A DNA stretch of 64,000 bases, from positions 5,156 through 69,155 of the forward strand of contig CAIQIZ010000022.1 in NCBI GenBank assembly GCA_903872035.1. Direction: 5' to 3'. A program made the translations under genes and the position numbers. The notes under the pieces were generated by a model, which worked only from the letters and a program-made list of their open reading frames with translations, did no database searches and had not been told where the DNA came from. The stretch comes from an uncultured bacterium (GTDB lineage Bacteria > Patescibacteriota > Minisyncoccia > Phycocordibacterales > PALSA-1337). Each line of letters begins with the position of its first letter. The first letter of the stretch is position 1. Of this stretch, positions 12,023-55,273 are shown in pieces.

Positions 12023-13159
12023 ATGTCCCTCTCCATCGGCATCGTCGGGCTCCCAAATGTCGGCAAATCGACTCTATTCAATGCGCTGACCCGGAAATCG
12101 GTCCCGGCCGAAAACTATCCTTTTTGCACCATCGATCCTTCGGTGGGTGTTGTGGCTGTGCCTGATGAGCGTTTGCAAAAGCTCTCGGACTTCTCTGTCT
12201 CAGTGAAAACAGTGCCTGCCGCAGTTGAATTCACTGACATCGCCGGTCTGGTCAAAGGCGCATCTGAAGGCGAAGGACTCGGAAATAAGTTCCTTTCACA
12301 TATCCGCGAAACGGACGCTATCGCCCAGGTAGTGCGCATCTTCGAAGACGAGAATGTTATTCACGTTAATGCAAAAATTGACCCATTGAAGGATATAGAA
12401 GTCATAAACCTAGAATTGGTTCTGGCGGATTTGCAGACAGCTACCAAGCGGATGCATTCATTGGTCAAAGAAGTCAAAGCTGGCAAGAAGGAGGCTATCA
12501 TTGAAGCTGGACTTCTGGACAAGATCATTCCGGCATTGGAAGCAGGGAAGCTGGCGTCGACAGTTGTGGCTGATGAATTCGAGGCGCCATTCCTCAAGCA
12601 ATTGTGCCTTATTACTTCAAAACCATTTCTTTATGTCTTGAACAAGAAGGCTGGCGCCAAGAATCTGGATGAATCTGTCCGAGGTGCGGCCTCGGAAATG
12701 GATGAAAGGTGGGTTAAGCTGATGAACTTCCTCGAAGGAGGTGGCACCTCCGAGGAGGTGCCACCTCCATATGTCATCGTCGACGCCGGTGTCGAGCAAG
12801 AATTGAAAGACCTAGATGAAGTGGATAAATTGGAGATGCGCGAAGGGCTCGGTGCTCACAACGATGGCACCGATGAGCTCATCAAGCGCGGCTACGACTT
12901 ACTCGGTCTCATCACCTATTTCACTACTGGAACCGATGAAACGCGTGCATGGACGATAAAGAAAGGCTGGACCGCTCCAGAAGCCGGGACTGCTATTCAT
13001 ACTGATTTCAAAGAAAAATTCGTTCGTGCCGAAGTCATCGAATGGGACAAACTCCTCTCCGTCGGCTCATACGCTGCCGCTCGCGAAAAAGGCTTGCTCC
13101 GCACCGAAGGGAAGGAGTATGTGGTCAAAGATGGGGATGTGATAGAGTTTAGGGTGTAG
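12023..13159 (+). CDS. ychF: Ribosome-binding ATPase YchF (Obg-family GTPase-like)
   Basis: P-loop 'GIVGLPNVGKSTLFNALT', 'DIAGLVKGASEGEGLGNKFL' G3/G4 region and C-terminal TGS domain 'RAWTIKKGWTAPEAGTAIHTDFKEKFVRAEV'. Carries an in-frame insertion encoded by two copies of a 15-nt palindrome (12737-12768). Confidence 0.9.
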   Translation: MSLSIGIVGLPNVGKSTLFNALTRKSVPAENYPFCTIDPSVGVVAVPDERLQKLSDFSVSVKTVPAAVEFTDIAGLVKGASEGEGLGNKFLSHIRETDAIAQVVRIFEDENVIHVNAKIDPLKDIEVINLELVLADLQTATKRMHSLVKEVKAGKKEAIIEAGLLDKIIPALEAGKLASTVVADEFEAPFLKQLCLITSKPFLYVLNKKAGAKNLDESVRGAASEMDERWVKLMNFLEGGGTSEEVPPPYVIVDAGVEQELKDLDEVDKLEMREGLGAHNDGTDELIKRGYDLLGLITYFTTGTDETRAWTIKKGWTAPEAGTAIHTDFKEKFVRAEVIEWDKLLSVGSYAAAREKGLLRTEGKEYVVKDGDVIEFRV

Positions 13160-13160
13160 G

Positions 13161-13187
13161 AAAAAAGGCCGGCTGTAAAACCGGCTT
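13161..13187. terminator. Hairpin terminator between ychF (+) and a small minus-strand ORF; the U-tract lies on the minus-strand side
   Basis: 'AAAAAA-GGCCGGC-TGTAAAA-CCGGC' forms a GC stem, with the A-run on the + strand giving TTTTTT after the stem on the minus strand. Confidence 0.4.
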
Positions 13188-13569
13188 GAAGGAAACTGAC
13201 TGACTTAGTTTCGTTGAGTCTCGATCTCTCGGAGCAAGGCTAAACCTTTGCTTCCGTCAGGATCGAATGACCTCAATCGATGATTGGCTCGACTTAATCC
13301 TTCATCACTATCTTCAGGCGGAGCCGTATGATGCGAATCATAGTGATCAGAGGAATAAAGAGCCTCTGGCGCAAGTTTTTGTTTCATAATTCACCTAGGA
13401 AAAGTATAGCATGAAGATGGTGGTCTCATAGAGTTTAAGATATAATTTTGAATTCTATGACCCTGAGTGAGACGGTTAGGCGAACGAATGGGTGATTGAG
13501 TTTAAGATATAACAGGCTGTGGATGCGCTCTTTGTCGGGATATAGTAGTATTATCATCCAGAAGTTGGT

Positions 13570-13963: not shown

Positions 13964-16900
13964 ATGAAAAAGAAACTCAAAGGAGGTGCCACCTCCAAAT
14001 ATAACCCAGCAACGATCGAGCCAAAATGGCAGAAGAAGTGGGAAAAGGAAAAGCTTTACGTGGCCAAGGAAAAGGCTGGTAAGAAGAAATTTTATGGCTT
14101 GATCGAATTTCCGTATCCATCTGGTGATGGTTTGCATGTTGGCCATATCCGCAGCAATACTGCCATGGATATCATATGCCGAAAGCGACGTCGTGAAGGG
14201 TTCGAAGTGCTATATCCCATAGGATGGGATGCTTTTGGTCTGCCAACAGAGAATTACGCTATCAAGACTGGTATTCAACCTTCAGTAGTCACCAAGAAGA
14301 ACACTGATACCTTCCGCAAACAACTGAAAGCTCTCGGCTTCTCATTCGATTGGTCAAGGGAAGTTAATACGACCGATCCAAAATACTATCGCTGGACGCA
14401 ATGGATATTCTTGCAGCTTTTGAAGAATGGTCTGGCATACAAGAAGAAGATGACGATCAATTGGTGTCCCAAAGATTTGATCGGCTTGGCCAACGAGGAA
14501 GTGGTGAATGGCCGCTGCGAGCGTTGTGGCACGCCGGTAGAGAAGCGTGAAAAGGAACAATGGATGCTGGCTATAACAAAATACGCAGAACGTCTCGACA
14601 GAGATCTTGATGATGTAGATTATCTACCAAAGATTAAGACCCAACAGAGGAATTGGATCGGCAAAAGCGAGGGAGCGGAGATCGATTTTAGATTGACGAT
14701 TAAGAATAGTAAGACGAGATTCGTGATTCTTCATGGCTTCGATGGGGGAGCCACGACGGATTTCCACCCATGGCTAAAAGAAGTGTTGGAGAAGCGTGGT
14801 CATGAAGTTGAACTTCCGGAATTGCCGAACGCCTATCATCCTAAGGAAGCCGAGCAAGTCGAATATGTTCTAAAGAATTGTAAATTGGATGAGAATACGG
14901 TTATTGTCGCTCATAGTTTAGGCGCGGTCGTGGCCATGAAAGCCTTGATGAAATTGAACAAGCCAATCTCTGGTTTGGTCTTGGTGGCCGCTGCCGTCGA
15001 TCCGAAATTCGACAAATTTTATGAGTCGCGTCCATTTGCCAAAGAATTCGACTGGAAATACGATTACGCTTTGCTTCAAAAGCTGACTGGTGGAAAGGTC
15101 GCAGTGCTTTCAGATCTCAAAGAAAAGCACAGAAGTCGTTATTTGAAATTCTTGGCTGAAAAGTTGAATGCACGTTTTGTTGAAACCAGTAGCGTAGAAG
15201 AGCATTTCTGCGCCAAAGAAGAGCCGGAAGTCCTCAAAGCCGTCACTCCATCTATCAAAGTCTTCACCACTCGCCCTGACACGCTCTTCGGGGCGACTTA
15301 TATGGTCTTGGCGCCAGAAAATCCTTGGGTCAAGATAGTTTTATCGCAGCTTGAGAACAAGACTGAAGTTGAAGCATATATCGCCAAAGCCTCGCATGAG
15401 ACAGAGATAGAACGCACTGATGCCACCAAAGAAAAGACGGGCGTCGAATTGAAGGGCGTGAAGGCGGTCAATCCCGCTAACAACGAAGAGATCCCGGTAT
15501 GGATCGCAGATTATGTTCTCTCTGACTACGGCACGGGAGCTATCATGGCTGTTCCGGCGCATGATGAGAGAGACTGGGAGTTTGCCAAGAAATTTGGGTT
15601 GCCGATCCGACATGTCGTTATACCGCAAAGGATTGGATTTCCTGGCGAGCTGGCTTTTCGTCCAAATGAACCGGTTGTCAATCGTAGGGTCATTCGTGCG
15701 GTAGTCAAACATTGGTCAGATAATTCCTACGCAGTTCTGACTTGGAAAGACAATGGCTGGAAGACGTTCATATCCGGTGGTATCGAAGAAGGAGAGGACC
15801 CAGTGACTGCTGCCAAAAGAGAGATATTCGAAGAGATCGGTTACAAAAATGCGGAGTTCGTCGGACCTATAGGTGGGCCGGTTCAAGCGAAGTTCTACGC
15901 GCCAAATAAGAAACAAAATCGTATCGATATCCAACAAGGATTGCTCTTCAAGCTGAAGAATGACGAGCGGGTGGACGTATCTCCTGACGAGCTCAAGATT
16001 CACGAGATGCAATGGTTACCGTGGGAATCTCTTGGTGAATTTATGAAGGGTACCATCATGGACTCATTCTTATTTGAGCGCCTCAATAGTGGTAATAATC
16101 AGTACTTTATCGGTAGTGGCATATTGATCGACTCTGGCCAATTCTCAGGAAGAGATTCCGAGTCGGCCATGAAAGAGATCACCGAATCGGTCGGCGGAAA
16201 ATGGGTCACCAAGTACAAGCTTCGCGATTGGGTATTTTCTCGTCAGCGGTATTGGGGCGAGCCTATTCCGGTCGTGCATTGTGACGCTTGTGAAGCGAAA
16301 GATCCTGACAATGGTGGCTGGGTTCCAATTCCGGAAAAGGACCTGCCGGTAAAGCTGCCGGTCGTGAAGAATTATAAACCGACACAGACTGGGGAATCTC
16401 CATTGGCTGCCATGACCAAATGGGTCAATGTCAAATGTCCAGTATGTAAGGGACCAGCCAAAAGAGAGACTGATACTATGCCGAACTGGGCTGGCTCGAG
16501 CTGGTACTACTTGCGCTATGTCGACCCAAAGAATGCGACACGATTTGCTGACTCAAAGAAATTGAAGTATTGGACACCTGTCGACTGGTATAACGGCGGT
16601 ATGGAACATACCACCTTACACCTCCTATATTCGCGTTTCTGGCACAAATTCTTGTTCGACCAGGGCGTGGTCCCGACGAGCGAGCCATATACAAAGAGGA
16701 CTTCCCACGGGCTCATCCTGGCGGAATTCGGGGTGAAGATGTCCAAGTCCAAAGGTAACGTTGTCAATCCAGATACCATCGTTAAAGCTGTCGGTGCCGA
16801 TGCGTTACGTGTATACGAGATGTTCATGGGACCTTTCGATCAACCGATCGCTTGGGATACGGACAATATCGCTGGATCACGCCGTTTCATTGAACGCGTT

Positions 16901-17458
16901 TGGAATATGCGCCAGCGAATTACTGGTGGAGCAGCCGAATCTTCGCCAGCTTCGGCGCAAACCGATCGAATCATCCATAAGACCATCAAGAAAGTCGGAG
17001 ATGATATCGAAGCTATGCGATTCAACACAGCCATAAGCTCGCTTATGATACTTGTAAATGAACTTGAGAAGCAGGGAGGAGGAAGGAGGGAGGAGGAAGT
17101 AGAAATTCCAGCCGCTATTTCACGCGAAAATTTTGAGATCCTTCTTAAGCTGCTCGCGCCATTCGCACCACATGTCACTGAAGAGCTTTGGGTCTCTCTA
17201 GGCAATAAAAAATCGATCCATTTGAGCGACTGGCCGGCTTATGATGCGAGCTTAGCCGCCGATGATGAAGTAAAAATAATCGTGCAAGTTAACGGCAAGG
17301 TCCGCGGCTCGTTCATGGCTAAGCAGGGAGCCCAAATGGAAGATTTGGAACGTCTGGCCAAGGGCTTGCCTGAAGCCAAGAAGTGGTTGGAAGGCAAGCA
17401 GATCGGCAAGGTGATAGTAGTGCCGAATCGTCTCGTCAACATCGTGTTGACAAATTAG
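13964..17458 (+). CDS. leuS: Leucyl-tRNA synthetase with two embedded extra domains (YdeN-like alpha/beta serine hydrolase; NUDIX hydrolase)
   Basis: HIGH motif 'LHVGHIRS' and KMSKS 'KMSKSKGN'. CP1 editing block 'TTRPDTLFGATYMVLAPE...GTGAIMAVPAHDERDWEFAKKFGLPI'. Anticodon-binding and C-terminal regions conserved. Extra ~180 aa between 'NWIGKSEGAEIDF' and 'TTRPDT' contain 'FVILHGFDG...VAHSLGAVVA' (an alpha/beta hydrolase GxSxG). Extra ~130 aa after the editing-domain core contain a perfect NUDIX box 'GGIEEGEDPVTAAKREIFEEIGY'. Total 1164 aa against about 800-860 typical. Confidence 0.9.
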   Translation: MKKKLKGGATSKYNPATIEPKWQKKWEKEKLYVAKEKAGKKKFYGLIEFPYPSGDGLHVGHIRSNTAMDIICRKRRREGFEVLYPIGWDAFGLPTENYAIKTGIQPSVVTKKNTDTFRKQLKALGFSFDWSREVNTTDPKYYRWTQWIFLQLLKNGLAYKKKMTINWCPKDLIGLANEEVVNGRCERCGTPVEKREKEQWMLAITKYAERLDRDLDDVDYLPKIKTQQRNWIGKSEGAEIDFRLTIKNSKTRFVILHGFDGGATTDFHPWLKEVLEKRGHEVELPELPNAYHPKEAEQVEYVLKNCKLDENTVIVAHSLGAVVAMKALMKLNKPISGLVLVAAAVDPKFDKFYESRPFAKEFDWKYDYALLQKLTGGKVAVLSDLKEKHRSRYLKFLAEKLNARFVETSSVEEHFCAKEEPEVLKAVTPSIKVFTTRPDTLFGATYMVLAPENPWVKIVLSQLENKTEVEAYIAKASHETEIERTDATKEKTGVELKGVKAVNPANNEEIPVWIADYVLSDYGTGAIMAVPAHDERDWEFAKKFGLPIRHVVIPQRIGFPGELAFRPNEPVVNRRVIRAVVKHWSDNSYAVLTWKDNGWKTFISGGIEEGEDPVTAAKREIFEEIGYKNAEFVGPIGGPVQAKFYAPNKKQNRIDIQQGLLFKLKNDERVDVSPDELKIHEMQWLPWESLGEFMKGTIMDSFLFERLNSGNNQYFIGSGILIDSGQFSGRDSESAMKEITESVGGKWVTKYKLRDWVFSRQRYWGEPIPVVHCDACEAKDPDNGGWVPIPEKDLPVKLPVVKNYKPTQTGESPLAAMTKWVNVKCPVCKGPAKRETDTMPNWAGSSWYYLRYVDPKNATRFADSKKLKYWTPVDWYNGGMEHTTLHLLYSRFWHKFLFDQGVVPTSEPYTKRTSHGLILAEFGVKMSKSKGNVVNPDTIVKAVGADALRVYEMFMGPFDQPIAWDTDNIAGSRRFIERVWNMRQRITGGAAESSPASAQTDRIIHKTIKKVGDDIEAMRFNTAISSLMILVNELEKQGGGRREEEVEIPAAISRENFEILLKLLAPFAPHVTEELWVSLGNKKSIHLSDWPAYDASLAADDEVKIIVQVNGKVRGSFMAKQGAQMEDLERLAKGLPEAKKWLEGKQIGKVIVVPNRLVNIVLTN

Positions 17459-17587: not shown

Positions 17588-18646
17588 ATGGCCACATCAC
17601 CCATTTCATTTAAACCAAAACAGACCACCAAGAGACTGCTCTCGTCCCTTCCTGATCGTGCCCGCGACGTCATTGTCCATCGTTACGGACTCGGAAAAGA
17701 GACGAAAAGGATGACACTCGATGCTATCGGCAAGCTTTACGGTATAACCCGTGAGCGTGTTCGTCAGATCGAGGCTTACGCCCTCTCGATGGTCCGCAAG
17801 TCTGAGGAATACAAGCAGGAAAAGGCAGCCTTTGCCGAGATAGAGACCCTGCTTCACTCTTTGGGTGGCATTGTTGTTGAAGATGATTTTCTCGGGCATG
17901 TCTCAAAAGATCCAAGCTTGCAAAACCATGTCTTTTTCCTACTAGTTGTCGGCGAACCTTTCCGTAAATTCAAAGAGGACGATGAGTTTCGACATCGCTG
18001 GCACGTCAACGAAGATTTGGCCAAGAAAGTCGAGGGTGCTTTGCGAAAGCTCTACGGTACTTTGAATAATCAAGACCTCCTTCCCGAATCAGAGATGATC
18101 GGAAAATTCTTGACCCATCTGGAAGATGTCTCTGAACGTTATAAAAATCAAGAGATCGTCAAGCGTTGGCTCTCCATTTCCAAAGCTATCGGCAAGAATC
18201 CTCTCGGCGACTGGGGTGTGGCCCAATCTCCGAACGTCAAGACCAAGGGTATGCGCGATTACGCATTCCTGGTCATAAGGAAGCATGGCTCGCCGATCCA
18301 TTTCCGCGAGGTCGCCAAACAGATCACGACTATGTTCAACAAAAAGGCTCACGTCGCAACTACTCACAATGAGCTCATCAAGGATCCTCGTTTCGTGCTC
18401 GTCGGTCGCGGCCTCTACGCTCTAGCTGAATGGGGATATGCTCCAGGAGTCGTCCGTGACGTCATCCGCACAGTCTTGGAGAAGAATGGCGCGCTTTCCA
18501 AGGAGGAAGTCATAGATAAGGTCATGAAGGAGCGCTACGTCAAAGAAAACACTATCATCGTCAATTTGCAAAATCCGAAGTATTTCCGCCGCGATAAAGA
18601 TGGCAAATATCTTCCGTCAGGCGAGAAAGTGAAGGTGGCAGCGTAA
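17588..18646 (+). CDS. Sigma-70 region-4-like HTH protein with C-terminal HARE-HTH-like domain
   Basis: N-terminal 'LPDRARDVIVHRYGLGKETKRMTLDAIGKLYGITRERVRQIEAYAL' matches the sigma-70 region 4 / LuxR-type HTH. C-terminal '...FVLVGRGLYALAEWGY' matches the HARE-HTH signature (F-x-x-V-G-R-G-x-Y-x-L-x-E-W). Confidence 0.55.
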   Translation: MATSPISFKPKQTTKRLLSSLPDRARDVIVHRYGLGKETKRMTLDAIGKLYGITRERVRQIEAYALSMVRKSEEYKQEKAAFAEIETLLHSLGGIVVEDDFLGHVSKDPSLQNHVFFLLVVGEPFRKFKEDDEFRHRWHVNEDLAKKVEGALRKLYGTLNNQDLLPESEMIGKFLTHLEDVSERYKNQEIVKRWLSISKAIGKNPLGDWGVAQSPNVKTKGMRDYAFLVIRKHGSPIHFREVAKQITTMFNKKAHVATTHNELIKDPRFVLVGRGLYALAEWGYAPGVVRDVIRTVLEKNGALSKEEVIDKVMKERYVKENTIIVNLQNPKYFRRDKDGKYLPSGEKVKVAA

Positions 18647-18745
18647 AGCAAGGAGGAAGGAGTAAGAAGCAAGGAGTAGGGCATGCCACCCTACTCCATT
18701 CTTCGTTCTCCTTGCTCCTTCCTTCTTACTCCTTGCTCCTATATT
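18647..18745. repeat. Purine-rich AAGGAG-repeat element forming a long imperfect hairpin (terminator-like) directly after a stop codon
   Basis: 'AGCAAGGAGGAAGGAGTAAGAAGCAAGGAGTAGGG' is followed by its near reverse complement 'CCCTACTCC...CTCCTTGCTCCTTCCTTCTTACTCCTTGCTCC'. It shares the 12-nt core 'GCAAGGAGGAAG' with the elements at 35901 and 53841. Confidence 0.4.
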
Positions 18746-18760
18746 TGCTATACTATAGCC

Positions 18761-20038
18761 ATGCCTCTCGAACAGACCTTTGCCTATCTAGTTCAGAATT
18801 TTCAGATAAACCTCTTACCGCAATCTATCCAGATCGCCATTGCCTTGGCGCCCATCATGCTGATGTGGCTTTTGGCAGTGATCTTCTGGGATCTGTGGGT
18901 GGATTATGTGCGCAGCAGTCATTTTTTGGAAGTAAAATATACAGTGCTAGAGTTGAAGCTGCCCAAGGATACATTCAAGTCGCCGCTAGCTATGGAATCG
19001 GTGCTGAACTCCATACACAATACATCTGATGGGAGCAAGTACTCGCAGTATTGGAAAGGTGAGACGCGACCGTGGTATTCCTTGGAGATTGCTTCTATCG
19101 AGGGTCAAGTAAAATTCTTCGTGTGGACTGAAGATCAACGAAAAGCCGGTCTAATGTCGGCGCTGTATTCACAATATCCTGGAATCGAGATCGTAGAGCG
19201 AGAAGACTATACAAGAAGCGTATATTTTGATCCGAAGGTCATCAGGATCTGGGCTGGTGAATTCAAATTCACAAAGCCCGATGCTTACCCGATCAAGACT
19301 TATGTCGATTACGGCTTGGATAAGGATCCCAAAGAAGAATTCAAGATAGATCCTCTTCTTCCGCTCATCGAATGGCTCGGCAGCGTCGGGCCAAATCAGG
19401 AGGTCTGGTTTCAATTTTTGATCAGAGCCCACATCAAGGAGCAGCACAAACCCGGGACTCTTTTTACGAAGCACGACGCTTGGATAGATGGTGCTCAGAA
19501 AGAAATAGACAAGATCCTTCTCATCAAGGATCGTAAGACCAAGATCGCTGGCGAGGTCAATCCCGAAACCGGTTATGCCAAAATCCCGACCATCTCCAAG
19601 CCGGAACAGGATCTGGTCGAGGCCATAGGCCGTAGCGTAAGCAAGCTTCCGTTCGATGTCGGCATTCGTGCCTTGTATATCGCCAAGAAGGAGATTTTCA
19701 ACACGCCTTTCGGTATCGGTGGGATCATTGGGAACATGAAGCAGTTCAATGCGGAAAATCTAAATGGATTCAAGCCGAATGGAGACAAGTGGCACAATCG
19801 GCTTGGCGATCCATGGCTAGATTACAAGAATTATCGTCGTAATCGTTATGGACGATTGGCTCTCATGGCCTTCAAGAGGCGCTCGTATTTTTATGCGCCG
19901 TTCACGAGCAAGCCGCTGGTTTTGAATACCGAAGAACTGGCGACCATTTACCATTTCCCTGGATCTGTTTCGCAAACTCCTTCATTAGATCGTATTCCGT
20001 CAAAGAAGGGCCAGGCACCTGGAAATTTGCCTGTATAA
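18761..20038 (+). CDS. Hypothetical membrane protein (N-terminal TM helices, large soluble domain)
   Basis: Likely start is the MPLEQ ATG at 18761; the track start at 18683 lies inside the upstream hairpin. 'IQIAIALAPIMLMWLLAVIFWDLW' is a TM segment. No recognisable catalytic motifs. Confidence 0.5.
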   Translation: MPLEQTFAYLVQNFQINLLPQSIQIAIALAPIMLMWLLAVIFWDLWVDYVRSSHFLEVKYTVLELKLPKDTFKSPLAMESVLNSIHNTSDGSKYSQYWKGETRPWYSLEIASIEGQVKFFVWTEDQRKAGLMSALYSQYPGIEIVEREDYTRSVYFDPKVIRIWAGEFKFTKPDAYPIKTYVDYGLDKDPKEEFKIDPLLPLIEWLGSVGPNQEVWFQFLIRAHIKEQHKPGTLFTKHDAWIDGAQKEIDKILLIKDRKTKIAGEVNPETGYAKIPTISKPEQDLVEAIGRSVSKLPFDVGIRALYIAKKEIFNTPFGIGGIIGNMKQFNAENLNGFKPNGDKWHNRLGDPWLDYKNYRRNRYGRLALMAFKRRSYFYAPFTSKPLVLNTEELATIYHFPGSVSQTPSLDRIPSKKGQAPGNLPV

Positions 20039-21005: not shown

Positions 21006-21060
21006 GAAAAAAGCCGGTGGAGGTTTCCACAGGCCGGGATGAAAAGTATTCGATTGCAGC

Positions 21061-33768: not shown

Positions 33769-34755
33769 ATGATTTACGACGTCGTTCTACCATCACAACC
33801 CAAGGTCATCCGCGAGGAAGGCAACAGCGGTACCTACGAGATTGATGGCCTTTACCCAGGTTATGGCCACACCCTAGGCAATTCGTTGCGTAGGATCATT
33901 CTCTCGTCTTTACCAGGCGCGGCTGTGACAAAGGTCAAGATCAGAGGCGTCGATCATGAATTTTCTGCAATCGAAGGCGTCAAGGAAGACGTCATCATCA
34001 TTCTGTTGGCCCTCAAGAAGCTACGCATCCGACTCGATACCGATGAACCTCAGCTCCTTACACTCAACGTCAAAGGTGTCAAAGAGATTACCGCCAAAGA
34101 CATCACGGTTCCAGGCCAGGCTGAGATTTTGAATCCAGACCTGCATATCGCCACCTTAACCGAGAAGGATTCTGCGATCGATATCGAGATCTCTGTCGAG
34201 AAAGGGTTGGGTTATGTCTCCAAGGAAGTCATCCAGAAAGATCGCGTGGAGATAGGGGCTATCACTCTGGATGCCGCCTTTACACCGATCCGCAAAGCCA
34301 ACTATGAAGTCGAGAACATGCGCGTCGGAGATCGTACTGATTTCAATCGTCTTCGCCTGTCCATCGAGACCGATGGCACCATAAGTCCGAGAGAAGCTCT
34401 CGAGAAGTCTATTTCTCTCATGATCCACCAGCTCAAAGCTATCGTCGGATTCAAAGAGGAAGAAGTCGAAGCCAAGGAGGAAGGAGGAAGCAGCAAGGAG
34501 GAAGGAGCTGAGGTCTCTGCGGACGAAAAGCATGGTAAGGGTGAAATGGATACGGAGCTTATGAAGACTCGCATCGATTCACTGGGACTCTCTTCTCGAA
34601 CTGCCAAGGCTTTGACGGCTGGCAATATCCGCACTTTGGGAGGTCTGGCACGCAAGAAGGAGTCAGATATCATGGATGTCGATGGATTGGGCGCCAAAGG
34701 GATGCAGGAGATAAAGAAATTACTCGCACAACACGGAATCACGTTAAAACAGTAA
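33769..34755 (+). CDS. rpoA: DNA-directed RNA polymerase alpha subunit
   Basis: NTD 'GYGHTLGNSLRRIILSSLPGAAVT', CTD 'LGLSSRTAKALTAGNIRTLGGL'. The inter-domain linker is a KEEG-rich low-complexity stretch encoded by AAGGAG repeats. Confidence 0.9.
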   Translation: MIYDVVLPSQPKVIREEGNSGTYEIDGLYPGYGHTLGNSLRRIILSSLPGAAVTKVKIRGVDHEFSAIEGVKEDVIIILLALKKLRIRLDTDEPQLLTLNVKGVKEITAKDITVPGQAEILNPDLHIATLTEKDSAIDIEISVEKGLGYVSKEVIQKDRVEIGAITLDAAFTPIRKANYEVENMRVGDRTDFNRLRLSIETDGTISPREALEKSISLMIHQLKAIVGFKEEEVEAKEEGGSSKEEGAEVSADEKHGKGEMDTELMKTRIDSLGLSSRTAKALTAGNIRTLGGLARKKESDIMDVDGLGAKGMQEIKKLLAQHGITLKQ

Positions 34756-35489: not shown

Positions 35490-35900
35490 ATGGCCCCAAC
35501 TACCACCACAAACAAATATTTCGAAGCCGTCGGTCGTCGCAAGACCGCCATTGCTCGTGTCCGATTGTTCCCGGCTCCAAAGGCCAAGTATGAAGTCAAC
35601 GGAAAGGCTTTGGAAGAATATTTTCCAGTAAAAGAGATGCAACAGACGGCTATGGAGGCCATCGAAAATGGCAAAGCAGCCGAGAAGTTTCTGGTAACGG
35701 CCAAGATCGTCGGTGGTGGCATATCTGCCCAATCAGAAGCTATGAGACATGGCATTGCTCGCGCACTCCTGGTTTACGATATTGAGCTTCGTGGTGGTCT
35801 CAAGAAGCAAGGATTTTTGAAGAGAGATCCTCGCGCCAAGGAACGCCGTAAGTTCGGATTCAAGAAAGCCCGCAAGTCTCCACAGTGGTCGAAGAGATAA
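35490..35900 (+). CDS. rpsI: 30S ribosomal protein S9
   Basis: 'YFEAVGRRKTAIARVRL' and C-terminal 'KRDPRAKERRKFGFKKARKSPQWSKR'. Confidence 0.9.
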   Translation: MAPTTTTNKYFEAVGRRKTAIARVRLFPAPKAKYEVNGKALEEYFPVKEMQQTAMEAIENGKAAEKFLVTAKIVGGGISAQSEAMRHGIARALLVYDIELRGGLKKQGFLKRDPRAKERRKFGFKKARKSPQWSKR

Positions 35901-35968
35901 GGAGGAAGAAGACAGGAGCAAGGAGGAAGGAAAATCTCAAAAAAGGGAGTGGCGACACTCCTTTTTTC
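35901..35968 (+). terminator. AAGGAG-repeat element plus rho-independent terminator after rpsI
   Basis: 'GGAGGAAGAAGACAGGAGCAAGGAGGAAGG' is followed by the hairpin 'GGGAGTG-GCGA-CACTCC' and 'TTTTTTCG'. Confidence 0.6.
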
Positions 35969-38590: not shown

Positions 38591-40510
38591 ATGTCCAAAA
38601 TCATCGGAATCGACCTCGGAACGACTTTCTCGGCAGTAGCCGTCATGGAAGCCGGAACGCCGAGAGTCCTAGAAAACGCGGAGGGGGCACGCACAACGCC
38701 TTCGATTGTCGCCCAATCTAAAACAGGCGAAAGGCTCGTCGGATTGCTTGCAAAGAGGCAGGCTGTGACTAATCCCAAGAACACCATATTCCAAATTAAG
38801 CGCTTCATGGGCCATAACTTCGACGATCCAGGCGTACAGAACGATATCAAGAACGTCTCATTCGAAGTCAGAAAATCTTCGACCGGCGGCATTGAAGTTA
38901 ACTTATCCGGCAAATGGATGAGACCTGAAGAGGTCTCGGCTATGATCCTGCAGAAACTGAAGAATGACGCTGAAACGAGACTTGGTGAAAAGATTACCGA
39001 AGCGGTCATTACTGTTCCGGCTTACTTCAACGACTCCCAGAGAGCCGCTACTAGAGATGCTGGTAAGATCGCTGGCCTCGATGTAAAGAGGATCATCAAT
39101 GAACCGACAGCCGCGGCCTTGGCTTATGGCTTCAACAAGAAGAAGGACGAGAAGATCGCCGTATTCGACTTCGGTGGCGGAACATTCGATATATCAGTGC
39201 TAGATGTTGGCGGAGATACGATCGAAGTGAAGTCTACTGATGGCGACTCCCATCTCGGAGGTCGCGATATTGATGCCAAGATAGTGAATTGGCTTGCAGA
39301 TACGTTCAAGAAAGAGAACGGCATTGATCTAAAGACTGATGCATTGGCTTTACAGCGTCTCGATGAGGCGGCAGAAAAGGCCAAGATAGAGCTTTCAACA
39401 TCTATGCAGACGGATATAAATATCCCATTCATCACTTCAGGTTCAGATGGACCGAAGCATCTTATGGTCACATTCACTCGCGCAAAGCTAGAGGAAATGT
39501 GCGCTGAATTCATAGATAGAGCCATGATGATCACCAAGCGCGCTATAGATGCTTCGCCATTCAAGGTCGGCGAGATCAATGAAGTAGTCCTAGTTGGCGG
39601 TCAGACACGTATGCCGGCCATGCAAAGCGCGGTCAAGAAGTTCTTCGGTAGGGATCCTCACATGGGAGTCAATCCTGACGAAGTGGTTGCGGTGGGCGCC
39701 GCTATTCAAGGCGGAATATTAGGCGGTGAAGTTCGAGACGTATTGCTTCTCGATGTCATTCCGCTTTCACTCGGTATCGAAACATTGGGCGGTGTTGCGA
39801 CGAAACTGATAGACAAGAATACGACCGTTCCTACCCAACGTTCTCAAGTGTTCTCAACGGCGGCTGACAATCAGACATCCGTGGAAATCCACATCACTCA
39901 AGGCGAGCGAGCTATGTCATCTGACAACAAGTCCCTAGGCCGCTTCATTCTCGACGGTATTCCACCGGCTCCTCGCGGTATGCCGCAGGTCGAAGTCACA
40001 TTCGATGTCGATGCTAACGGCATATTGAATGTCACAGCAAAGGATAAGGCTTCCGGCAAGGCTAACTCCATAAAGATCACTGCTTCTTCGGGTCTATCCA
40101 AAGAAGAAGTTGAGAAGATGAAGCAGGAAGCGGCCAAGCATGAAGCTGAAGATAAGACCAAGCATGAGGCTGTAGAAGCTAAGAATATTTCTGAACAATT
40201 GATCTACACCGCTGAAAAGGCTTTGAAAGATGCCGGAGACAAAGTTCCTGCCGATATCAGGAAGGGTATTGAAGACAAGATAGCCGACTTGAAGACGGCC
40301 AAGAATGGGAGCGACCTTACGCTCATAAAGAAAGTAACGGAGGCTTTGTCGACCGAAATTCAGAAGATTGGGCAGTACATGAATAAGGAGCAAGGAGGAG
40401 GGAGTAAGGAGCAGGGAGGCTCGAATTCTGGAGGTCAAAACGGGGACAAAGGCGCCGGTGGAGACTCAGGTGGAAATGTGAAGGATGCGGAGTTTAAGGA
40501 AAAAAAGTAG
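38591..40510 (+). CDS. dnaK: Molecular chaperone DnaK (Hsp70)
   Basis: '[14 protein letters not shown]', 'DLGGGTFD', '[11 protein letters not shown]' Hsp70 signatures and a Gly-rich C-terminus. Confidence 0.95.
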
Positions 40511-47410: not shown

Positions 47411-47415
47411 GTTAA

Positions 47416-47448
47416 GAAAAAGGCCACCCAAACCTGGGCGGCCGATTG
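47416..47448. terminator. Bidirectional terminator between the RND gene (+) and 47471..48328 (-)
   Basis: 'AAAAA-GGCCACCCA-AACC-TGGGCGGCC', with a T-run on the minus-strand side. Confidence 0.5.
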
Positions 47449-47470
47449 GCAAGTTTCGTACTCACCGCAT

Positions 47471-53333: not shown

Positions 53334-53840
53334 ATGGAACCTAATTCTTCAGGTATAAAGACGTGGCAATGGGTAGTGACCGTCGTTGTCATTATCGTGA
53401 TCATCGTTATTTGTGTCTTGGTCTTTGGTGGTAAGGGCTCTCAAGCTCCCGCTACTGGAACCAACACGGTCAATACGACCGATCAGACAGCTGCTCTTAA
53501 TAAGATCGACATGAATGATCAGTTTCCTGGTAACGTTGTTTACATAAATACAGTCACTGTGGCCAATCCGAGCTGGGTGGTCATCCAATCTGACAATAGT
53601 GGACAACCTGGTGCCGTCATCGGTTCCGCTGAATACAAGGCTGGCATGAATCCTGGTGGAAAGCTCACACTCTCACAGGCCATGGTTGATGGAGGAACGT
53701 ACTACGCCGTCATCTACACCAATGATGGTAGCGGCAAGTTCAGCGCCGCCACCGACAAGCCTCTCACGGATTCTAGCGGAAATATCGTCATGAAGGTATT
53801 CCATGCCACGACTTCAGCTGGAGCGGGACTCAAAGGATAA
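53334..53840 (+). CDS. Hypothetical membrane-anchored protein (N-terminal TM, Thr/Gly-rich ectodomain)
   Basis: TM 'WQWVVTVVVIIVIIVICVLVF'. Followed by an AAGGAG-repeat element plus terminator. Confidence 0.5.
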   Translation: MEPNSSGIKTWQWVVTVVVIIVIIVICVLVFGGKGSQAPATGTNTVNTTDQTAALNKIDMNDQFPGNVVYINTVTVANPSWVVIQSDNSGQPGAVIGSAEYKAGMNPGGKLTLSQAMVDGGTYYAVIYTNDGSGKFSAATDKPLTDSSGNIVMKVFHATTSAGAGLKG

Positions 53841-53890
53841 GGAGCAAGGAGGAAGAAGCAAGGAGAAGGTCGGCGCTATGCCGGCCTTTT
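53841..53890 (+). terminator. AAGGAG-repeat element plus rho-independent terminator
   Basis: 'GGAGCAAGGAGGAAGAAGCAAGGAGAAG' then the hairpin 'GGTCGGCG-CTAT-GCCGGCC' and 'TTTTC'. Confidence 0.55.
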
Positions 53891-53932
53891 CTATTAATTG
53901 AATAGCTGAGCGATTACCGCTATACTATCGAC

Positions 53933-55273
53933 ATGGATGAACAAAAGAAAGTAGTAACCAGATTTGCCCCTTCTCCGACAGGCCTATTTCATGCTGGAAG
54001 CTACAGAACGGCCCTTTTTGCTTACATATTCGCCAGACAGAATAATGGTAAATTTATACTACGAATAGAGGATACTGACAAAATGCGGTCGACAAAGGAG
54101 TATGAGGATAACATCATTGAGAGTCTCAAGTGGCTCGGATTGTCGTACGACGAATTTTACAGACAATCGGATAGGACGGAGATCTATAAAAAATACATTA
54201 AAAAACTGATTGACTCTGGACACGCCTATGTTTCAGAAGAGACTCCCAAAGAAGCAGGTGATAGGGCTGAAGTGATACGTTTCAAAAACCCCAATAAAAA
54301 AGTGGCGTTCGATGACCTGATTCGAGGGAAGATAGAATTCGATACCACGGAATTGGGCGATTTCGTCATAGCAAAAAGCATAGATGAACCCGTATTTCAC
54401 TTGGTGAACGTCGTCGACGACTATGAAATGGGGATGACACATATCATCCGAGGAGAAGACCATATCTCAAATACACCGCGTCAGATTTTGATATTTGAAG
54501 CTATTGGAGCCAAACCACCGATCTACGCTCACATACCGCTTCTACTTGGAAAGGATCGCTCCAAGTTATCCAAACGAAAAGGAGCAATATCAATGACAGA
54601 ATACCGTAATCGCGGTTTTCTGCCAGAAGCTCTAGTCAATTATATGGCCTTGCTCGGCTGGCATCCGGCTGACGACATAGAAGTATTGTCGCTTGAACAG
54701 ATAATCAAGGATTTTACGCTCGATCGCGTACAAAAAGCGGGGGCCATCTTTGATGAGGAAAAGCTGCAATGGTTCGACCGCCAATACATAAGCAAGCTCA
54801 GCGACAATGACTTTCACTCGAAAGCGTCTGCTTTTATTCCCGAATGGTTGAAAACTGATAGTGTACGCCTGAACCGGTGCATTGTTCTGCTTCGCGAGAA
54901 GGTCTCCAGTTTCGGGGAAATCCCTAAACTATTTGAAGCTGACGGCGAGCTCGGTTTTGTCAAAGAATTGAAGAGCTACACGCCGGACATGCTTCTTTGG
55001 AAGAAAAATCCTAGCAAGGAAGCGGCAGCGGCGAATTTGAAGCAGGCTAGCGAATCATTAGAAGCTATTCCAGACGATTCATTTACTGCCGAGTCGATCA
55101 AAAATTCTATATGGAAATACGCCGAAGAGAAGGGTAAAGGCGATGTTCTCTGGCCACTCCGGATGGCTTTAACGGGTCAAGATAAGTCTCCAGATCCATT
55201 CAATTCCGCATTCATTCTTGGAAAGGTTGAATCTTTGACGAGAATCAAATATGCACTTGAAAAGCTCTCATAA
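53933..55273 (+). CDS. gltX: Glutamyl-tRNA synthetase
   Basis: 'RFAPSPTGLFHAGSYRTALF' (HIGH-type), 'IRIEDTD', 'KLSKRKG' (KMSKS-type). Confidence 0.9.
   Translation: MDEQKKVVTRFAPSPTGLFHAGSYRTALFAYIFARQNNGKFILRIEDTDKMRSTKEYEDNIIESLKWLGLSYDEFYRQSDRTEIYKKYIKKLIDSGHAYVSEETPKEAGDRAEVIRFKNPNKKVAFDDLIRGKIEFDTTELGDFVIAKSIDEPVFHLVNVVDDYEMGMTHIIRGEDHISNTPRQILIFEAIGAKPPIYAHIPLLLGKDRSKLSKRKGAISMTEYRNRGFLPEALVNYMALLGWHPADDIEVLSLEQIIKDFTLDRVQKAGAIFDEEKLQWFDRQYISKLSDNDFHSKASAFIPEWLKTDSVRLNRCIVLLREKVSSFGEIPKLFEADGELGFVKELKSYTPDMLLWKKNPSKEAAAANLKQASESLEAIPDDSFTAESIKNSIWKYAEEKGKGDVLWPLRMALTGQDKSPDPFNSAFILGKVESLTRIKYALEKLS

Follow-up and report, generated by a model that had tools for sequence, protein, structure and literature searches.

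Degenerate AAGGAGN heptamer arrays after stop codons and within genes of a Patescibacteria contig: a probable family of heptanucleotide tandem repeats

In a 64-kb stretch of the patescibacterial contig CAIQIZ010000022.1 (hereafter the window, meaning the whole 64,000 nucleotides analysed), three plus-strand genes end in a TAA codon that adjoins a purine-rich run of AAGGAG-like units, which raises the question of what such an element does at the ends of genes, or how it came to be there. The original prediction favored a ribosomal role, in which tandem Shine-Dalgarno (SD) sites in the 3' untranslated region (3' UTR) would park or recycle ribosomes or drive re-initiation, and kept a short dispersed repeat family as a fallback. 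The evidence assembled here backs the fallback. With a probability of roughly 0.6, these runs belong to a family of degenerate AAGGAGN heptanucleotide tandem repeats, short and specific to the lineage, which resides in unconstrained sequence and resembles an SD site only incidentally.

A degenerate heptamer at six loci

The purine-rich runs adjoin the plus-strand stop codons at 18644-18646, 35898-35900, and 53838-53840 (hereafter sites 1, 2, and 3), which close unrelated genes encoding a Sigma70_r4/HARE-HTH protein, ribosomal protein S9 (rpsI), and a DUF7282 protein, respectively. The predicted 12-mer GCAAGGAGGAAG was confirmed in sequence and position shortly 3' of each TAA, with exact copies at 18648, 35918, and 53844, and a fourth exact copy is located inside rpoA at 34493. 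When up to one mismatch was allowed, nine matches were obtained against 0.38 expected, and the maximum over 100 dinucleotide shuffles was two. The true unit is a degenerate heptamer, AAGGAGN, which Tandem Repeats Finder (TRF) resolved at seven places as 4.3-4.9 tandem copies in arrays of 30-39 nt with 73-85% matches, in agreement with the head-to-tail 7-nt structure seen by lag-7 autocorrelation. Six AAGGAGN loci are present in the window, three of them directly after stop codons and three in frame within leuS, the rpoA linker, and the dnaK tail. A search for (AAGGAGN)4 matched at 21 or more of 24 positions recovered six arrays on the plus strand and one locus on the minus strand, and 40 third-order Markov simulations of the window yielded no array at this threshold, the top score being 19.

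These numbers bear on a refutation that the original prediction had named for itself, namely that the element is a by-product of purine-rich codon usage, and also on chance as an explanation. AAG, GAG, and GGA are common codons, and AAGGAG occurs 29 times on the plus strand of the window outside the arrays. However, the simulations contain no arrays and the shuffles remain far below the observed matches, so purine-rich composition or codon bias does not explain the element. In addition, three of the arrays are noncoding, and no AAGGAGN array was found in 570 kb from 36 related genomes with similar proteins, leaving this explanation with a negligible probability.

The order of unit variants is unlike at every AAGGAGN site, indicating a repeat family rather than copies of one fixed element; different sites also have 13-16-mers in common. 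The first unit takes in the stop codon itself (TAAGGAG) at sites 2 and 3. Folding prediction portrays the isolated arrays as unstructured purine runs. The 5 kb adjoining the window on its left contain no further array, and Rfam 15 at the gathering score gave no match to the window itself or to eight related loci that are rich in arrays. As predicted, conservation of the post-stop element holds at the nucleic-acid level, with three unrelated downstream frames. Read-through into a C-terminal extension was likewise rejected, given these unrelated frames and the conserved ...KR at which S9 ends in all relatives.

The in-frame use of the purine-rich unit in three genes was also borne out, both by TRF and by comparison with relatives. 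The rpoA array (34474..34507, plus strand) consists of 4.9 copies of AAGGAGG in the linker between the N- and C-terminal domains and holds the fourth exact GCAAGGAGGAAG, and the dnaK array (40385..40418, plus strand) consists of 4.9 copies of AAGGAGC in the Gly-rich C-terminal tail; both fall in stretches of hypervariable sequence throughout the relatives. The period-7 array in leuS (TRF 17068-17099, plus strand) corresponds to a clean, in-frame insertion of 39 nt or 13 codons, QGGGRREEEVEIP (17072..17110, plus strand), which is lacking in the four closest relatives. The AAGGAGN arrays of the window thus lie only in unconstrained sequence, comprising the spacers between stop codons and hairpins and, in frame, disordered protein segments.

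A second small repeat, GGAGGTGSCACCTCC, forms the palindrome GGAGGTG(G/C)CACCTCC, in which an SD-like half precedes an anti-SD-like one. It is present twice in tandem in ychF (12737-12768) and once in the N-terminus of leuS (13982-13996), all being in-frame insertions or replacements relative to related genomes (EGGGTSEEVPPP; LKGGATS). The leucyl-tRNA synthetase encoded by leuS (13964-17458; 1164 aa) also harbors Pfam Ser_hydrolase/Abhydrolase and NUDIX matches embedded between the synthetase domains, and the same matches are found in the leucyl-tRNA synthetases of relatives L162-L164.

Gene ends, hairpins, and start signals

A hairpin lies 3' of each post-stop run, as the original prediction had stated, and its relation to the array is particular to each site. 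At site 1, between the Sigma70_r4/HARE-HTH gene and a DUF8128-like gene, a plus-strand array of 4.3 copies (18647..18681; TRF 18647-18676) begins 1 nt past the TAA and is followed by an inverted AAGGAGN array on the minus strand (18694..18740; TRF 18708-18740), detected with period 7 and also as 2.2 copies of period 21. The whole inverted repeat (18647..18740, plus strand), with the core GGAGTAGGG/CCCTACTCC at 18673-18697, is predicted to fold into a long hairpin of -53.1 kcal/mol (z = -6.9), consistent with the claim that this element pairs with its own downstream complement. The hairpin is the best terminator-like match on both strands, and with only TATATTT on its 3' side it has a partial version of the U-tract expected of an intrinsic terminator. 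The 94-nt palindrome has no other full copy in about 69 kb. Relatives whose adjacent upstream protein is 94%, 91%, and 89% identical carry other hairpins or terminators at this position, followed by TATAAT and a leaderless ATG (MPL...), and no array of three or more copies was present in the loci fetched. The heptamer palindrome therefore occupies the terminator slot at site 1.

Downstream of this hairpin, an extended -10-like box, TGCTATACT (18746-18754), is located 6 nt before the conserved ATG at 18761 of the DUF8128-like gene, which gives the region (18746..18763, plus strand) a leaderless layout. The ENA and Logan gene calls place the start of this gene at another ATG (18683), which lies in the hairpin loop 6 nt past an AAGGAG. 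A start at 18683 would add 26 residues encoded by the pyrimidine arm, an extension that is not conserved in relatives, and both the JGI gene call and the relatives favor 18761. Judging from these comparisons, ATG 18683 is probably not the real start, and the gene callers were apparently drawn to it by the upstream AAGGAG. This serves as a practical warning that SD-trained gene callers can be misled by such arrays.

At site 2, 4.7 copies (35898..35934; TRF 35899-35931, plus strand), with the rpsI TAA included in the first unit, fill the spacer before an intrinsic terminator (35939..35967, plus strand) composed of an A-tract, the stem-loop GGGAGTG-GCGA-CACTCC, and T6. The hairpin region has a predicted energy of -23.5 kcal/mol (z = -2.2). 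The terminator AAAAAGGGAGTGGCAACACTCCTTTTTTCGTG is common to five relatives, two of which show compensatory changes, and ahead of it these relatives have an AT-rich spacer with no relation to the array. In the window this spacer is 16 nt longer than in those five relatives and is made up of the array. In L010, the closest relative by S9, two copies of GAAGAAG constitute the 5' arm of the rpsI terminator. The minimum-free-energy and centroid structures of site 2 compete, and in these models pairing of the array with the U-tail is possible.

At site 3, 4.6 copies (53838..53869; TRF 53839-53869, plus strand) begin with a unit that contains the TAA of the DUF7282 gene and lead into a terminator hairpin (53862..53892, plus strand) with a 13-bp stem, -22.1 kcal/mol, and z = -3.4. 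The last heptamer, GGAGAAGG, pairs with CCTTTTCT, and the array thereby supplies the base of the terminator stem. GC hairpins with U-tracts were thus verified at sites 2 and 3, where it is the hairpins and not the arrays that qualify as intrinsic terminators. The following region (53898..53935, plus strand) comprises a promoter-like TTGAAT-17-TATACT and the gltX ATG at 53933, which is 6 nt past the -10 box in a leaderless layout. The nearest relative at this site, L166 (MurG 82% and GltX 78% identical), has retained the coding-sequence end, the terminator hairpin, the promoter-like sequence, and the leaderless gltX start, and its spacer between stop and terminator contains a GGAGCTA heptamer array that aligns to the window array at 17 of 22 nt. 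At the same position L168 carries an AGTACTA array with an inverted partner, forming a hairpin. The unit therefore turns over between species (GGAGCAA in the window, GGAGCTA in L166, and AGTACTA in L168), and arrays are absent from the orthologous sites of L169 and L170, which have plain terminators, and of L167, which has an 8-nt spacer. Elsewhere in L167, a Taylorbacteria relative, seven copies of the 11-nt repeat GATAAAGTTTT are located just 5' of dnaB (L167:20049-20125) and could represent an iteron or origin-like array.

The wider genomic context provides little for SD-led initiation. A GTDB scan anchored on S9 returned Patescibacteria alone (labelled Paceibacteria, Parcubacteria, and Taylorbacteria) at 45-83% identity, and the window itself is part of a 70-kb JGI metagenome contig (Ga0073936_10000349, from 3300009175). 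Five contigs of the same species hardly differ from the window, with four at 100% and one differing by a single base, and the organism is found in several other samples (ERZ27313102, ERR4195020, and SRR5581337). SD-like motifs at -18 to -4 precede 3 of 56 gene starts (5%) against a background of 9%, and a -10-like box, often TGnTAtAnT, is found 5-10 nt before the ATG at 34% of starts against 8% (starts checked for these layouts include 12023, 13964, 18761, 20043, 22747, 28520, and 53933). SD sites are not used by this genome, and the -10 boxes just before ATG codons, together with the scarcity of SD motifs, suggest leaderless starts and hence widespread leaderless mRNAs. Within coding sequence GGAGG is mildly depleted (z = -2.2) and its complement CCTCC more so (z = -2.8), which argues against an SD-specific avoidance signal. 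The anti-SD motif has been detected in just 48% of Parcubacteria (Tsurumaki et al., PMC9297842). No rRNA was found in the window or in any fetched relative locus, and no tRNA genes were found in the window. Ordinary terminators of this genome start 1-8 nt past the stop codon. Convergent gene pairs at 13160-13204, 21006-21060, and 47411-47470 are each separated by one A-tract, GC hairpin, and T-tract, which look like bidirectional terminators.

Period-7 arrays in relatives and the competing readings

Comparison across the clade indicates what is kept and what is not. Among strongly periodic 35-nt windows in the 570 kb from 36 related genomes, 12 have lag 7 and two have lag 9, with none at the other lags from 4 to 12. 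In 663 kb from relatives, 25 of 30 period-7 arrays are intergenic, against an intergenic share of 13.8% of the sequence. By our own count, 12-13 of about 19 intergenic regions have their first array no more than 10 nt from the upstream stop, and these include spacers as long as 199-715 nt. Inverted pairs are frequent among the arrays and give hairpins of 20-35 bp (z = -3 to -10). Units vary between loci and between genomes, and the rpsM-rpsK, rpsK-rpsD, and rplM-rpsI spacers hold arrays with different units in different lineages. What recurs across the clade is therefore the period of 7 and the position adjacent to the stop codon, and not the sequence of the unit. The distribution is patchy, with arrays in 9 of 36 GTDB loci in the TRF census.

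Long inverted-heptamer hairpins of this kind are found at L021:8485-8566, L021:1885-1985, L022:7250-7340, L022:6130-6215, L017:6996-7125, and L007:1603-1680, where they span ribosomal-protein gene spacers from a few nucleotides past the stop to a few nucleotides before the next start. Their units are unrelated (GAATTTA, AGGGACT, AAGATTT, AGTGATT, AACGCAA, and others), and the loops of two of them, from different genomes and loci (L021:1920-1935 and L022:6165-6180), have the motif AAACGCATAA in common. A metagenome contig scan with AAGRAGNAAGRAGNAAGRAGNAAG detected perfect AAGGAGN or AAGAAGN arrays in many unrelated contigs among at least 120 stretches. Among the matches listed, some stand beside typical cyanobacterial heptamer repeats, and none belongs, by contig name, to a locus from the source sample.

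Under the favored reading, the arrays would arise and turn over by insertion and by slippage in a 7-nt register. They would survive where they are harmless, in 3' spacers and, when their length is a multiple of 3, in disordered linkers. The match to the SD consensus would be incidental and tolerated in an organism without SD-led initiation. Any role at the RNA level would at most be to provide material for 3'-end stem-loops. At site 1, the inverted arrays would form the sole hairpin, a terminator or stabiliser, that separates two transcription units; the last unit at site 3 would lengthen the terminator stem onto the U-tract; and the array at site 2 would be a spacer without structure, able to pair with the U-tail once the transcript is released. 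Such structures may serve termination or 3'-end protection, as judged from their position and from the equivalents in relatives.

Several observations weigh against this reading. Templated copy-and-paste would suit equally well the sharing of one unit by six loci in the same genome and the clean insertion of 39 nt. Arrays adjoin stop codons even in long spacers, and the site 3 array has been kept since the split from L166, both of which give a hint that position is selected and not just tolerated. The L166 array also has AGGAG cores and L010 has its two GAAGAAG copies at the rpsI terminator, so a preference for purines or GGAG at sites 2 and 3 may not be a pure accident. In addition, no copy-number polymorphism is visible among the five essentially identical contigs of this species, and the gene models of the relatives are crude open reading frame (ORF) calls.

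The stop-adjacent arrays in long spacers and the persistence of the site 3 array also form part of the case for a selected module, defined in RNA or DNA by its period, in which the 7-nt periodicity by the stop codon is itself the signal, either as an array for Csp-, S1-, or CsrA-like single-strand-binding proteins or as a hairpin that brings the stop near the next start for coupling. The ribosomal-protein and site 3 spacers, with their different units across lineages, point the same way, as do inverted partner arrays that end 2-23 nt before the next start codon, and similar proposals have been made for TAACTGA repeats (PMC4679880) and STRR sequences (PMC2670836). However, a sequence-specific binding protein cannot account for AAGGAGC, GAATTTA, and AGTACTA alike, the distribution is patchy, with the site 1 relatives devoid of arrays of three or more copies, and half of the loci in the window lie inside ORFs. 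Ordinary terminators here also abut stop codons, which makes position alone weak evidence, and such a module is on balance unlikely. Its broader form, in which periodicity by stop codons is maintained throughout Paceibacteria as a functional 3'-end or intercistronic module of an SD-less, largely leaderless translation, has only a slim chance of being correct; the AAGGAGN arrays of the window would then be one species' version of it, with the hairpin serving termination-reinitiation or acting as a protein platform. Equally slim is the prospect of a very small mobile or templated-insertion element, by which AAGGAGN cassettes of 30-40 nt would be copied between loci in the manner of the small dispersed repeats of cyanobacteria or of REP-like elements. 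Beyond the unit shared by six loci, the common 13-16-mers, and the clean leuS insertion, such copying would fit the in-frame insertion of GGAGGTGSCACCTCC in both ychF and leuS and the reuse of CAGTAAA at two loci of L014. However, there is no master sequence, the order of unit variants differing at each site, and neither terminal inverted repeats nor target-site duplications nor a second site 1 palindrome were found in about 69 kb; nor was a gene for a transposase or a RAYT-like protein noticed in their vicinity. A MITE- or REP-like element was rejected for its lack of defined ends, of repeated full-length copies, and of any evident target-site duplication.

The ribosomal reading, in which tandem SD sites pair with the 16S tail after termination to park or recycle the 30S subunit, re-initiate, or protect the mRNA in the manner of STAB-SD, draws on the identity of AAGGAGG with the canonical SD consensus, on arrays that begin at the stop codon and, being unstructured alone, would be accessible, on the AGGAG cores retained in the L166 array, and on the AAGGAG positioned 6 nt before ATG 18683 at site 1. 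However, SD motifs at gene starts fall below background and show no specific avoidance in coding sequence, and each gene that follows site 1 or site 3 has a -10 box of its own, 6 nt ahead of a conserved ATG, with a hairpin intervening. No start codon occurs at SD spacing past the site 2 array, the ATG 12 nt past the last AAGGAG of site 3 opens an ORF of only seven codons, and the extension from 18683 is not conserved, unlike the start at 18761. Relatives have an identical layout of stop, terminator, and promoter with non-SD heptamers or with none, three arrays of the window lie inside ORFs, and the anti-SD motif has been detected in only 48% of Parcubacteria (PMC9297842). The leading claim of the original prediction is thus not sustained and must be judged quite improbable. 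A ribosome device built from tandem SD sites in 3' UTRs would, if true, be a new regulatory principle; with the evidence against it, the claim should not be propagated. Even less credible is a two-layer G-quadruplex that affects transcription or translation, as considered for the GGGAATC repeats of Xanthomonas and Nostoc. The copy number of about four and the G-rich strand downstream of ORFs on the coding strand agree with that precedent (PMC4692102), and ViennaRNA with G-quadruplexes enabled predicted two-layer structures in the rpoA and leuS arrays. However, none was predicted for the dnaK array or for the arrays at sites 1-3, and the idea was dropped for the post-stop arrays on this ground. 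The arrays also contain GG tracts only, never GGG, and the related arrays of other genomes are AT-rich. The heptanucleotide repeat family consequently remains the preferred reading.

Relation to known repeat systems

Hairpins of the REP type can terminate or stabilise mRNA. Heptanucleotide STRR sequences of cyanobacteria were reportedly described by Mazel in 1990, and an SD-like mRNA stabiliser of Bacillus thuringiensis cryIIIA, STAB-SD, is said to have been reported by Agaisse and Lereclus in 1996. In many bacteria, no class of long simple-sequence repeats is more abundant than the heptanucleotides, which have been proposed to result from slippage of the polymerase in a 7-nt register (Mrazek 2007, summarised by PMC4679880 and PMC4692102). 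In the literature searched, no description of heptanucleotide repeats in the Candidate Phyla Radiation was found, and the arrays described here extend these repeats, long noted in bacteria, into that group. The clade contributes stop-abutting long hairpins, the same spacers occupied by different units, and in-frame insertion in the essential genes leuS, rpoA, and dnaK, features that provide useful material on why the period is 7 nt.

The dispersed REP/BIME elements (PMC3333891, PMC3116915) resemble site 1 in being hairpin-forming intergenic repeats at the 3' end of a transcription unit. However, REPs are a fixed palindrome mobilised by RAYT, have no 7-nt periodicity, and are never in frame in genes. 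STAB-SD, an SD-like sequence unused for initiation, is the nearest precedent for the tandem-SD idea, but it is a single 5' UTR site in an SD-using organism, whereas the window has tandem sites located in 3' UTRs or ORFs of an SD-less genome. The TAACTGA repeats of marine Beggiatoaceae, whose repeat-bearing regions rarely have canonical ribosome-binding sites (PMC4679880), likewise consist of one dominant heptamer in 2-6 copies, intergenic (including ribosomal-protein operons) and occasionally within ORFs. They differ in lying just upstream of starts and in having no complementarity to 16S rRNA, whereas the window arrays lie just downstream of stops.

The heptamers GGGAATC and GGGGA(C/T)T of Xanthomonas and Nostoc occur in about four copies downstream of ORFs on the coding strand, and their position is kept while their sequence varies (PMC4692102). 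The window arrays share with them the purine- or G-rich composition, the copy number, the location, and some inverted pairs; those repeats, however, form stable G-quadruplexes, which the post-stop arrays are predicted not to form. The closest likeness is to the cyanobacterial STRR sequences, 7-bp repeats that form intergenic hairpins for which transcript stabilisation, translation coupling, and termination have been suggested, the function being unknown (PMC2670836), and which have also been found inside the gene for RNase P RNA (Vioque 1997, cited by PMC7593598). Both are short tandem arrays of 7 bp with a unit common to several dispersed loci and with inverted pairs that form hairpins, and both also occupy tolerant positions within genes, exemplified for STRR by the structured RNase P RNA. 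STRR sequences are mostly intergenic near gene ends, where three of the six loci of the window are found. In contrast to STRR, the window arrays occur in Patescibacteria, are short and degenerate (4-5 copies), have a unit equal to the SD consensus, and lie in frame at half of their loci. With these differences, the arrays of the window probably belong with the STRR-like heptanucleotide simple-sequence repeats, a known and poorly understood kind.

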